NCBI GenBank assembly: GCA_964631155.1
Contig: CAZVYO010000011.1
Coordinates: 7,591 to 71,590, forward strand
Direction: 5' to 3'
Length of the DNA stretch: 64,000 bases
From: an uncultured Flavobacteriaceae bacterium
Lineage (GTDB): Bacteria; Bacteroidota; Bacteroidia; Flavobacteriales; Flavobacteriaceae
In this document: positions 52,617-57,610 of the stretch, piece by piece
How the letters are laid out: each line of letters opens with the position of its first letter
How positions within the stretch are numbered: the stretch's first letter is position 1
Translations under genes and position numbers: made by a program
The notes under the pieces: model-generated
Databases searched by the model: none
Told to the model about the DNA's origin: nothing
What the model saw: only the letters and a program-made list of their open reading frames with translations

Positions 52617-54737
52617 ATGCAGGAACACCTCAAATCAAACGTACTTAACTTTCATTGGCCTAAAACCCTACCCACCTTTTTTCTAACATTAGAAGAGATT
52701 GAGGGAAGTTTTCCTGTACATAAATCTAAATTTTCTAAGCAAATAAAGGAATGTTTTAATGATGAGGATATTACCTCAAAGGATGAAATATACACAACCT
52801 ACGATAAACCATTACAGGATGCGCCATCTATAAAACTCAACCTAACCAACAGAAAGGAGCTACGTATATATAAGCAGTTCCTCAAGCACCAATTAAGAGA
52901 GCATTTTAGAAACAAAGGCTATATCGTTGGGAAAAACTTCGTAAGAGACGTTCAGGTGTGGTTGCCATCGTCAAATGAGAATACAGAGCATTACAATCTC
53001 TACTACAAGTTTTCATTTAAAATTCAGTTTCAAAAGATTTCAGAACTGCCAGAATTGGTGATTTCTTATGACGGCACGTCAAAAGTATTGACTTCCTCAG
53101 TTAAGGATATTGAAAACACAGAGCACATCGGGCGTTGCGTTTACGGCCAATCCACCTTCAACTACCAAATGCCGCTGGACACAGAGGAAAAGAGGGATTT
53201 CTATGATAGTATAGAATTTGATCAGGCGTTCCCGCTATTCAGGTTAGAATTAGCTCAAGAGTTGGGTATTCCTATAGACCCACCTCAAAAGCCCGACAAT
53301 AAATACAAGAAATACGTCGCATTGATAAACAGCTTTGCAACTAAGTATCTCTTTACAGATGAGTTCCAGTCTATTTTCGCTTTCGCGAAAGCGGAATTTA
53401 TCGACGTTCCGTTACATAGCATTCAGCATATCGACCCTAATAAAGGCTTGCTGGAATTTGGAAAGGACCAATACAATAATCGCAAAACGCATTTAGTACC
53501 TAAAATTGCGATGAACTCGCTTAACCCATACAGGCGACCGCCTATCCAAAACATTAAATTCTTCTTTGTTTACCATACCTCACACAAATCAGGTATAACC
53601 AGTTTTTATAACAATTTGAAATATGGTGTAAATGGATTAGATGCTAAGAAAACATATTTCAAGGGAATTGAAGACTACGTAAATATAAAGGCAGCTACCT
53701 CTAAAGGTCATTTTATTGAGTTCACAAATGAGAATGATCCAATACCAGAAATACAGGATCAGCTGGAAAACCTGAATTTTGACCACGATAACATTCGTTT
53801 TGCAGCATTTTATATCAGTCCTTTTGATCGTTTTACACCAGATCCTGAAGATCGTGAAGTGTATGTTAGAATAAAGGAATTGTTTCTAAATGAAGGTATT
53901 GTTACTCAGGTAGTCGACTACCAAAAGATGATAGAAAATATTGAAAATCAGTACACCTTTCAATTCACATTACAGAATATGACTTTAGCCCTTCACGCTA
54001 AGTTAGGTGGTGCCCCTTGGAAATTAGCCGTGACAGACAAAAAGGAATTGGTTATAGGTGTAGGTGCGTTTACTAATCAAGGTGAAAACAGGCGGTACAT
54101 TGCAAGCGCATTTAGCTTTCAAAACAATGGATTGTTTAGAGGTTTTGAGTACTTCGATCAAAGTGAAACAAAGCTATTAGCAGGAAGCATTTGTAAAGCA
54201 ATTCGTGATTTCACATCCATCGCAAAGGCAGATAAAGTAGTAATCCATTTCTATAAAGAAATGCGACGAGAAGAACTTCAACCTATTGTGAGAGGAATGA
54301 ACGCCTTGAAGCTTAAAGTACCGCTGTACATTTTAAATATCAACAAGACCGAGTCGGAAGATATTATAGCCTATGATTTGAATTGGGGCGATAAGCTGAT
54401 GCCTGTAAGTGGTACAACCATACGTATTGATGAAAACCAATACTTGCTATTCAATAATGCCAGGTATCCAAAATCGCAATGGTATGCAGACTCAGAAGGC
54501 TATCCGTTCCCAATAAAAATCAGGATCAGCAGTCCAGATGAAGATGCTTTAGAAGATATGGATACGGTAAAACAGCTATTAACACAGGTGTATCAATTTA
54601 GTAGATTATATTGGAAATCTTTACGCCAACAAAATGTACCTATCACGATCAAGTATTCTGAAATGGTGGCCAAAATAGCACCTCGCTTTAATGCCCCTAT
54701 CCCTGCACACGCTAAAGACAAGCTATGGTTTCTGTAA
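52617..54737 (+). CDS. Prokaryotic Argonaute, long form, catalytically inactive (long-B-like)
   Basis: MID 5'-phosphate pocket Y..IK, TQ, N...ALHAKLGG.PW; PIWI ELVIGVG (G at the first catalytic D), VVIHFYK (no D), PITIKYSEM; C-terminal LWFL. Confidence 0.88.
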   Translation: MQEHLKSNVLNFHWPKTLPTFFLTLEEIEGSFPVHKSKFSKQIKECFNDEDITSKDEIYTTYDKPLQDAPSIKLNLTNRKELRIYKQFLKHQLREHFRNKGYIVGKNFVRDVQVWLPSSNENTEHYNLYYKFSFKIQFQKISELPELVISYDGTSKVLTSSVKDIENTEHIGRCVYGQSTFNYQMPLDTEEKRDFYDSIEFDQAFPLFRLELAQELGIPIDPPQKPDNKYKKYVALINSFATKYLFTDEFQSIFAFAKAEFIDVPLHSIQHIDPNKGLLEFGKDQYNNRKTHLVPKIAMNSLNPYRRPPIQNIKFFFVYHTSHKSGITSFYNNLKYGVNGLDAKKTYFKGIEDYVNIKAATSKGHFIEFTNENDPIPEIQDQLENLNFDHDNIRFAAFYISPFDRFTPDPEDREVYVRIKELFLNEGIVTQVVDYQKMIENIENQYTFQFTLQNMTLALHAKLGGAPWKLAVTDKKELVIGVGAFTNQGENRRYIASAFSFQNNGLFRGFEYFDQSETKLLAGSICKAIRDFTSIAKADKVVIHFYKEMRREELQPIVRGMNALKLKVPLYILNINKTESEDIIAYDLNWGDKLMPVSGTTIRIDENQYLLFNNARYPKSQWYADSEGYPFPIKIRISSPDEDALEDMDTVKQLLTQVYQFSRLYWKSLRQQNVPITIKYSEMVAKIAPRFNAPIPAHAKDKLWFL

Positions 54738-56476: not shown

Positions 56477-57610
56477 ATGTTAGATAAGTCATTGAGCAGA
56501 AAACAATTGTACGAGTTGGTATGGTCAAAACCACTCACCCACATTGCAAAGGAATATGACTTTTCAGATAATGGCATTCGTAAAATCTGCAAAAAACACA
56601 ATATACCTCTTCCAAAAGCAGGATACTGGTCTAAGATTAAATTCAACAAAAAAGTAACTAAAACAAAACTTCCTAAACAAGACGATAATCCCCAAATCAC
56701 ATTGGAGAAGTCTAATCCTGTAGTCTCAGGTAATAATCATATCAATTCTCAGATGGCTTTAAGGAAAAAGGAACTTAAGGAAATAGAGGAATTGACGTTT
56801 ACAGTTCCAGACCGTTTATCAAAACCGCATAAATATGTTACGGCCACCAAAGAATATCACAAACAGCTTAAGATAGTTCAAAAACGTGGTGGCTGGAGTA
56901 GCGATGTGGATTCATCTGATGCCTTAAGTATAGATGTATCAGAAAGCTTAGTGCCGAGAGCCCTCAGAATATTTGATACATTACTTAAAGTTTTTGACAA
57001 AAGAGGTTACAAGATTTCTTCAAATAAAAAGACGGAAGTAACTATAAAAGAGCAAACCTACTCAATACGCATCACGGAGAAATCAAAGAGAGTGAAACGA
57101 GAAGACAACCGTAGTTGGGATTCTTATGATTTTGTACCCACGGGTAGATTGTGTTTGAAAATTGATGATTACTCACCTATAAAAGAATGGGCAGATTCAA
57201 AAACTAAGCAATTAGAAGACCGAGTTCTCGATATTCTTTCTTGGTTAGAAATTAGAGCTAAAAAAGATCAGGAGCAAGCAATCCAAAGCGCATTGTGGCG
57301 TAAAAAACTTGAGGAAGAAAGAGAAAAAGAAAAGCAACTACAGGCTTTAAAGGATGATGAATTAAATCGCTTTAAACAGTTATTTGATACTGCATCTCGA
57401 TGGCATAAATCTCAATATCTAAGAAACTACATCAATGAGTTTGAAAAATATGGACTTGATTCAAAAACACTTGATTCCGATAAACAAGAGTGGATTAAAT
57501 GGGCAAAAGAAAAAGCAGATTGGTACGACCCATTTATAGAGAAAGAAGTCGAGCTGCTAAATGATATTGACCGTGATACACTTAAATCAAAGAAGAAAAA
57601 TTATTGGTAG
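56477..57610 (+). CDS. Conserved hypothetical protein (N-terminal HTH-like LYELVWSKP...LPKAGYW)
   Basis: 377-aa ORF 9 nt after the helicase; the N-terminal motif is familiar from mobile-element hypotheticals. Confidence 0.7.
   Translation: MLDKSLSRKQLYELVWSKPLTHIAKEYDFSDNGIRKICKKHNIPLPKAGYWSKIKFNKKVTKTKLPKQDDNPQITLEKSNPVVSGNNHINSQMALRKKELKEIEELTFTVPDRLSKPHKYVTATKEYHKQLKIVQKRGGWSSDVDSSDALSIDVSESLVPRALRIFDTLLKVFDKRGYKISSNKKTEVTIKEQTYSIRITEKSKRVKREDNRSWDSYDFVPTGRLCLKIDDYSPIKEWADSKTKQLEDRVLDILSWLEIRAKKDQEQAIQSALWRKKLEEEREKEKQLQALKDDELNRFKQLFDTASRWHKSQYLRNYINEFEKYGLDSKTLDSDKQEWIKWAKEKADWYDPFIEKEVELLNDIDRDTLKSKKKNYW

Follow-up and report, generated by a model that had tools for sequence, protein, structure and literature searches.

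The 64,000-nucleotide window analysed here (contig CAZVYO010000011.1, positions 7,591 to 71,590 of the forward strand, from assembly GCA_964631155.1 of an uncultured Flavobacteriaceae bacterium) carries seven closely packed open reading frames (ORFs) on the plus strand between 45.9 and 57.6 kb, among them a gene for a prokaryotic Argonaute (pAgo) that is followed directly by a gene for a superfamily 1 (SF1) helicase and then by one for a protein of 377 amino acids (aa). An earlier reading of the letters alone (the original prediction) had proposed that the pAgo and the helicase form a new defence system, with the 377-aa protein or an upstream dCTP deaminase as a possible effector. The four genes concerned are the following:

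52617..54737, plus strand: long-B pAgo, predicted to be catalytically inactive, 706 aa (PADLOC pAgo, Pfam Piwi, RsAgo-like AlphaFold2 (AF2) model)
54737..56467, plus strand: SF1 helicase of UvrD/FBH1-like type, 576 aa; small helix-turn-helix (HTH) at the C-terminus (Pfam UvrD-helicase, UvrD_C)
56477..57610, plus strand: 377-aa protein, no family assigned (HTH-like N-terminus, beta domain and ~85-residue helix in its AF2 model)
50467..52545, plus strand: anti-phage dCTP deaminase, 692 aa (PADLOC dCTPase, NCBIfam antiphage_deaminase, Pfam dCMP_cyt_deam_1)

Re-reading the sequence returned the same ORFs as the original prediction, the same TAATG at 54735-39, in which the pAgo stop codon (TAA, 54735-54737) overlaps the helicase ATG (54737-54739), and the same 9 nt between the helicase stop and the start of the 377-aa ORF. 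An alternative helicase ATG lies upstream, at 54725; because all homologues of the helicase begin with MKWTKEQ, MKLTKEQ or MEWTKEQ, we take 54737 as the true start, giving 576 residues.

The Argonaute

Along its whole length the pAgo matches the PADLOC pAgo model (4.5e-270), and its residues 411-689 match Pfam Piwi; the nearest solved relatives of the protein by sequence in the Protein Data Bank (PDB) are AfPiwi, RsAgo and EcAgo. An AF2 model based on an alignment of 39 homologues (pLDDT 84.6, pTM 0.81) has RsAgo as its top fold match over the full length (E 9e-28, TM 0.69). The MID pocket residues Y416, K420, Q431 and K462, which align with the 5'-phosphate pocket of RsAgo, are invariant in the 39 homologues, and the C-terminal LWFL is invariant among homologues as well. 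At the sites of the catalytic DEDX tetrad, the pAgo has the motifs IGVG (480-483), IHFY-K (543-547) and YSEM (680-683). Position 1 is G483, aligned with a Gly of RsAgo, and position 3 would be K547, as judged from the motif position (RDG site); both residues are invariant in the 39 homologues and stand in place of catalytic Asp residues. Position 4 would likewise be E682 by motif position, and for the equivalent of the glutamate finger the alignment to RsAgo gave no confident position. With its MID pocket intact and its DEDX tetrad lost, the pAgo is predicted to be catalytically dead.

Its RsAgo-like fold, its PDB matches and the listing of its homologues point to a long-B pAgo with full-length architecture and a reduced PAZ domain: Table S1 of Ryazansky et al. 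2018 (PMC6299218) gives 703-aa homologues of both Cellulophaga lytica and Winogradskyella as longB with a small PAZ and of YK type, and identity to the window pAgo is 74-76% for the C. lytica protein and for a locus of Winogradskyella thalassocola. The dead long-B pAgo with a retained MID pocket put forward in the original prediction is therefore borne out by the invariant YKQK residues, by G483 and K547 and by the best fold match. The protein is unremarkable within its subclade, a large group of long-B pAgos from Flavobacteriaceae, and a search of plasmids for the pAgo returned distant Piwi matches only.

The helicase and its family

The helicase carries Pfam UvrD-helicase (PF00580) at residues 8-245 and UvrD_C (PF13361) at residues 369-488, and its SF1 motifs (Walker A AGSGKT, DEGQD, VGDTHQQIY, HRSKGMEYD and LLYVSATRTKN) are invariant in the alignment of its lineage. 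A GcrA-like HTH at residues 536-578 was matched weakly (E 6e-4, under the Pfam cut-off), scans against Pfam, PADLOC and NCBIfam detected no nuclease domain, and PADLOC gave no match to DdmD. These results uphold the earlier description of an SF1 helicase with all motifs, a C-terminal HTH and no nuclease, the HTH on a weak match.

By sequence, human FBH1 is the solved protein closest to the helicase (E 3e-47). The family is large, with over 4,400 matching database proteins, and among the matches listed most are 43-48% identical and come from Bacteroidota; the ~50 Bacteroidota loci inspected hold relatives at this level of identity as lone genes in chromosomal surroundings of an ordinary kind. 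Homologues of 28-46% identity are found on 1,772 of 72,556 plasmids (68% of the carrier plasmids are conjugative), with matches that span ~85% of the query and end before the C-terminal HTH region. No pAgo lies beside the helicase homologue in the three plasmid regions inspected, and the records inspected state no role for it. On the IncC plasmid peH4H (NC_012690.1; L178, locus numbers with L being our own) the homologue sits beside traF/traH/traG, and on a Hymenobacter plasmid (L177) beside ArdC. A search of metagenome contigs for close relatives yielded only 39-56% identity, loci L100 and L145 apart, and a search of viral contigs nothing useful.

Neighbour-joining analysis against 45 other homologues resolved the helicases that lie next to a pAgo into two groups, each with 100% bootstrap support (group 1: the window, L081 and L065; group 2: L073, L076, L145, L088 and L100), and united the two groups at 94.5%. 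By this tree, the pAgo-linked helicases form a single lineage that split from the widespread Bacteroidota/plasmid FBH1/UvrD-like family. Identity within the lineage is 47-49%, as deep as its divergence from other homologues.

Association of the helicase with the Argonaute

A scan for pAgo relatives with one genome per species gave at least 569 stretches, of which 80 loci, all from Flavobacteriaceae or close relatives, were examined; their ORFs were clustered, the clusters annotated, and the surrounding island viewed in 20-kb windows. Seen from the helicase, the association with pAgo is consistent. All eight lineage members with known context (the window, L065, L073, L076, L081, L088, L100 and L145) lie downstream of a pAgo, in six of the eight with a gap of at most 3 nt or an overlap. 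Among loci retrieved helicase-first with at least 2.2 kb of upstream sequence, a pAgo lies upstream in 4 of 4 lineage members versus 0 of 50 others (exact p ~3e-6; L088 has only 0.7 kb upstream, which holds the pAgo 3' end). Elsewhere in the 20-kb island windows the helicase never occurs. Moreover, since the partner pAgos span 33% (L100) to 100% identity to the window pAgo and L100 keeps the pair without the 377-aa gene, the adjacency is old compared with the rate at which other cassettes turn over. As far as sampled, with eight loci gathered through one island family, the helicase lineage is restricted to the slot behind such pAgos. We favour the reading in which the pAgo is self-sufficient and the helicase serves it as an optional accessory, and hold it with confidence just short of even.

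Seen from the pAgo, the association is loose, and this weighs against the accessory reading, as do several findings that follow. By tblastn, the helicase is present among the 80 pAgo loci in L065, L073 and L076 only; it is found in none of the ~62 loci with a pAgo 71-79% identical to that of the window and in none of four distant pAgo loci (L173-L176, 37-45% identity), and over all pAgo-first loci it is present in 3 of 84 and absent from 81. In two more distant pAgo subclades (~55% and 48% identity) its frequency is ~40%. Because most pAgo relatives lack the helicase, the pAgo does not need it. The original prediction listed a usual absence of the helicase from close pAgo homologues among the findings that would speak against it, and the counts show just such an absence; what survives of its pAgo-helicase system is the placement of the lineage behind pAgo in 8 of 8 loci versus 0 of 50 for other homologues.

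The histories of the genes are also discordant. Between the window and L073 the 377-aa proteins are 92% identical, whereas helicases and pAgos are each at 49%, and in L088 the pAgo is of clade B while the helicase is of group 2. A HEPN-like gene (240 aa) stands between pAgo and helicase in L073 and L145. Because the window pAgo belongs to clade A over its entire length, up to the stop codon, the helicase cassette was joined at that stop by recombination, without co-adaptation. In addition, unrelated cassettes start 3-9 nt past the pAgo stop (HEPN-like 9 nt, DISARM 3-6 nt), and the adjacency could be a simple product of cassette exchange that uses the conserved 3' end of the pAgo gene as its anchor.

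Two candidate signs of a functional link were set aside. Translational coupling, to which the original prediction gave weight, is no sign of function, since the unrelated HEPN-like and DISARM cassettes lie equally close to the pAgo stop. A mosaic pAgo with a helicase-adapted C-terminus was not seen, the window pAgo being of clade A throughout.

According to the chief rival to the accessory reading, the mobile island carries the helicase, alone or together with the 377-aa gene, as independent cargo, as a maintenance gene of its own or as a separate defence cassette. The protein would then be a UvrD-like helicase of plasmid type serving replication, transfer or establishment of the element, and recombination that takes the conserved pAgo 3' end as its anchor would keep it in this slot, with no functional link to the pAgo. 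Its homologues on largely conjugative plasmids, its solitary Bacteroidota relatives, the many pAgos without it, the discordant histories with an additional gene inserted in L073 and L145, and the presence of DISARM and other independent systems in the same slot at equally tight spacing are all in keeping with such a gene, but a deeply diverged lineage that is never found away from pAgo, nor anywhere else in the island windows, is not. A lone helicase without an effector would furthermore be unusual as a stand-alone defence, and a maintenance function would be odd given the cargo-region site and the presence of the helicase in ~4% of islands. We consider this rival a serious contender, though on balance we doubt it; eight loci and a single island family do not separate a pAgo accessory from a mobile-element helicase.

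The 377-aa protein and the dCTP deaminase

Seven of the eight lineage loci have the 377-aa gene next after the helicase, with a gap of 9-44 nt, and this arrangement speaks for an obligate three-gene system in which the guide-bound pAgo would activate the helicase and the 377-aa protein would act as the toxic effector. The protein itself does not fit that role. It matches no Pfam, PADLOC or NCBIfam family, even at E<=1, and its AF2 model (pLDDT 84), with a small N-terminal helical HTH-like domain, a beta domain and a helix of ~85 residues, has no significant match among PDB folds (best E 0.28) and neither a catalytic nor a membrane fold. The gene also closes the variable region after unrelated cassettes in L066, L075 and L085, occurs in other defence islands that have neither helicase nor pAgo (L086, L087), and is absent from L100; most members of the pAgo clade lack both it and the helicase. 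We consider an obligate three-gene system very unlikely. Because the 377-aa gene follows unrelated cassettes, occurs without the two partners and has diverged in a manner uncoupled from the helicase phylogeny, it probably belongs to the right-hand backbone of the island and not to a pAgo system.

The original prediction had named the 377-aa protein as a possible effector; as a nuclease or toxin effector it was rejected on its lack of a family and of a PDB fold and on its solitary occurrence in other islands. The dCTP deaminase, proposed there as the alternative effector, fared no better. It matches PADLOC dCTPase over residues 7-660 (1e-119), NCBIfam antiphage_deaminase (2e-89; its 300 bits fall short of the curated cut-off, which is 400) and Pfam dCMP_cyt_deam_1 at residues 517-571, and it combines an N-terminal P-loop kinase-like domain with a C-terminal dCMP/cytidine deaminase zinc site. 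That it serves as effector of the pAgo is highly improbable: although it lies 71 nt upstream of the pAgo on the same strand, with a homologue upstream of the pAgo in L026, L043, L048 and L065, it is a full-length match to a known stand-alone anti-phage system with its own kinase-like domain, and these are 4 of 80 loci, three of which have a further gene in between.

At L100, the gene directly upstream of the pAgo (L100:3023-3904) encodes a 293-aa protein with a weak PD-(D/E)XK match (PDDEXK_5, E 0.0034), and the 224-aa ORF upstream of this gene has long hydrophobic stretches that suggest a membrane protein. Both are possible effector candidates for the L100 pAgo.

The island and its defence hotspot

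Across the pAgo loci examined, the pAgo holds a fixed position within an integrative element inserted next to mnmE. The other features of the element in the window are:

35914-37335: mnmE; the integrative-element backbone adjoins
37447..43417, plus strand: integrative-element backbone (ORF order and sizes as in annotated related loci)
43423-45060, minus strand: DRT2 defence reverse transcriptase (PADLOC Drt2, 5.6e-129)
45888-47990, plus strand: methylase of a type I-like restriction-modification (RM) system (from its translation; L081 homologue with N6_Mtase)
48020-49438, plus strand: RM specificity subunit (from its translation; L081 homologue with Methylase_S)
49431-50438, plus strand: RhuM (Pfam, 1.7e-103)
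57611..58790, strand unassigned: ORF-free conserved stretch, possibly a structured RNA (nucleotide identity across loci)
58791-59117, minus strand: DUF1508 gene, right-hand backbone (cluster 59/25 assignment; order as in L073, L081, L085)
59540-60181, plus strand: DUF6266 gene, right-hand backbone (cluster 59/25 assignment; order as in L073, L081, L085)

The upstream backbone consists of a tyrosine integrase, DUF6617, two HTH_17 genes, a BT4734-like gene (formerly VirE_N), a PriCT_2/DUF3987 primase-like gene and an XRE regulator; in the window, 37447-43417, including the HTH gene, was assigned to this backbone from ORF order and sizes equal to those of the annotated clusters of related loci. 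The same kind of integrative element beside mnmE was marked at L174:1-6010, together with 35914-43417 of the window. To the right, the backbone is of one of two types, either metal efflux genes (czc-like RND, P-type ATPase) or, as in the window, the 377-aa gene, a 1.1-kb non-coding stretch, DUF1508 (minus strand) and DUF6266.

Between these backbones, unrelated defence cassettes swap on both sides of the fixed pAgo slot. Upstream of the pAgo we observed MmeI-type RM, ApeA, Abi_2, TIR, type I RM with RhuM, dCTP deaminase and DUF3800, and downstream a HEPN-like 243-aa gene, DUF4238 and the DISARM genes DrmE/DrmA/DrmB. The distance from the pAgo stop to the start of the cassette is near-constant for each type and therefore suggests precise exchange at gene boundaries. 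In L001-L080, cluster 19 starts 9 nt from the stop, clusters 16 and 20 mostly 42 and 46 nt from it, respectively, and DISARM DrmE-like genes 3-6 nt from it.

The layout of this hotspot accounts for two published associations of long-B pAgos, namely VirE_N proteins (og_54) 2-8 genes upstream (Song et al. 2023, PMC10620215) and linked RND transporters (Ryazansky 2018, PMC6299218).

A few further genes of the hotspot deserve mention. The HEPN-like 243-aa protein of cluster 19 (L026:9223-9954; also in L002-L004, L073 and others) is absent from the window; it has an Rx4H motif (RNCIVH) and weak matches to HEPN_Swt1 (E 0.085) and PADLOC RTasHEPN (4.6e-4), and flanks the pAgo on either side in 23 of 81 loci, which makes it a commoner pAgo neighbour than the helicase. 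It may be an RNase partner or merely another cassette. The DRT2 gene of the window has the primase-like gene of the backbone on one side and the XRE regulator on the other, and homologues are likewise placed in L065, L073 and L076. The L081 homologue of the type I-like methylase has an HSDR_N_2-like N-terminus, and no ORF of HsdR size lies between the specificity gene and the pAgo of the window, whose RM genes occupy 45888-50438.

A conserved non-coding stretch

The 1.18 kb that separate the 377-aa gene from DUF1508 on the minus strand (57611-58790) hold no ORF longer than 75 aa. Over ~1.1 kb, this stretch retains 79-88% nucleotide identity to L085, L081, L073, L076 and L145, and it is partly matched in ~11 further loci; the adjoining 377-aa proteins of L085 and L081 reach no more than 47-68% identity, far below the level of the non-coding stretch. 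RNAalifold found hairpins in the alignment, with 231 pairs of which 33 show compensatory changes, and a search of Rfam returned nothing credible. As to the strand, the minus strand has the lower raw energy and the plus strand the better z-score (-3.4 versus -1.8, 20 shuffles each). The stretch may encode a structured RNA of large size or act as a cis element for the island. In L073, L076 and L145 it contains an insertion of ~180 nt, at a point corresponding to ~58185 of the window (approximately L073:16238-16415 and L076:15525-15702), with long perfect inverted ends, GACCTAAACCCCATAGCAGA ... TCTGCTATGGGGTTTAGGTC; this could be an element resembling a miniature inverted-repeat transposable element (MITE) or an added hairpin.

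Comparison with known systems

The window pAgo shares its full-length architecture, reduced PAZ, YKQK pocket and lack of DEDX with RsAgo and the long-B pAgos that Song et al. 2023 (PMC10620215) class as 'og_54-associated', 'other' or 'none', and the VirE_N/BT4734-like gene a few genes upstream fits the og_54 description. Identity to RsAgo is only ~15%, and the subclade of the window pAgo is without a characterised member. The BPAN, BPAS and BPAM systems (EcAgo-EcbAgaN and others) likewise pair an inactive long-B pAgo with a partner directly downstream in the same orientation. Nucleases (og_15), SIR2_2 proteins (og_44) or membrane proteins (og_100) are the partners in those systems, whereas here the partner is an SF1 helicase followed by a soluble 377-aa protein; moreover, their effectors co-evolve with the pAgo and always accompany it, whereas most relatives of the window pAgo have no such partner.

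Pairings of an Argonaute with a helicase have precedents. PIWI-RE is one such pairing. DdmDE of Vibrio cholerae and ApsAB of E. coli ST38 likewise combine a non-cutting Argonaute-like protein with a helicase, and it is the Argonaute of DdmDE that brings its helicase to target DNA (PMC11096173; bioRxiv 10.1101/2024.05.10.593530). The proteins differ from those of the window: ApsA is an SF2 helicase of >1,400 residues with a C-terminal PD-(D/E)XK domain and DdmD too joins helicase and nuclease, whereas the window helicase is a nuclease-free SF1 protein of 576 aa, and DdmE and ApsB are highly divergent pAgo-like proteins, whereas the window pAgo is a canonical long-B. The obligate co-inheritance of DdmDE and ApsAB is likewise not what we found, with the helicase in 3 of 84 pAgo-first loci.

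By bioinformatics, Ryazansky et al. 2018 (PMC6299218) linked UvrD helicases of orthogroup og_6 with the operons of pAgos; these proteins reportedly contain PD-(D/E)XK motifs, none of which was detected in the window helicase. FBH1 and the UvrD-like helicases of plasmids such as IncC peH4H have a homologous core, and the window helicase has no F-box. GajB of Gabija is also a UvrD-like SF1 defence helicase; the matches of the window helicase to it are partial (PADLOC E down to 1e-20), and no GajA-like gene (OLD-family nuclease), which Gabija calls for, lies within 45-60 kb of the window.

In our literature search we met no account of an SF1 helicase lineage that lacks a nuclease and accompanies a canonical long-B pAgo, in agreement with the original prediction, to which no characterised long-B pAgo with a bare SF1 helicase as coupled partner was known. 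Its claim to novelty holds to that extent, but it had overlooked DdmDE, ApsAB and og_6 as precedents for an Argonaute with a helicase.

Discussion

In the accessory reading, which we favour, the pAgo would most likely act like RsAgo, binding 5'-phosphorylated small guides and recognising invader DNA without cutting it. The helicase, as a 3'-5' motor of the UvrD/FBH1 type, might unwind the invader DNA or strip proteins from it and so bare single strands for targeting by the RNA-guided pAgo. Alternatively, it might supply guide precursors to the pAgo, or the target-bound pAgo might recruit the helicase to disrupt replication of the invader by stripping replication or recombination proteins, a variant that would resemble the recruitment of DdmD by DdmE, minus the nuclease. 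The 377-aa protein and the dCTP deaminase would be separate island genes and not effectors in any of these schemes.

The pAgo itself is of a known kind, and the pairing would be a new variant only if the link is functional. In that case, a dedicated FBH1/UvrD-like SF1 lineage would serve as partner of a long-B pAgo, as a new, optional and modular analogue of DdmDE without a nuclease, an interpretation that we put forward tentatively and with rather less than even confidence.

The question bears on how effector-less long-B pAgos such as RsAgo achieve interference. If the helicase truly cooperates with the pAgo, the pair would offer a nuclease-free route from target recognition to interference and widen the Argonaute-helicase theme of DdmDE, ApsAB and PIWI-RE, which would then take in SF1 helicases and canonical long-B pAgos. 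Should there be no link between the two, the locus would still illustrate clearly how a conserved pAgo can stay in place as the anchor of a hotspot, on a mobile island of Flavobacteriaceae, in which defence cassettes are swapped, and such an anchor would explain the puzzling links of long-B pAgos to VirE-like and RND-efflux genes.

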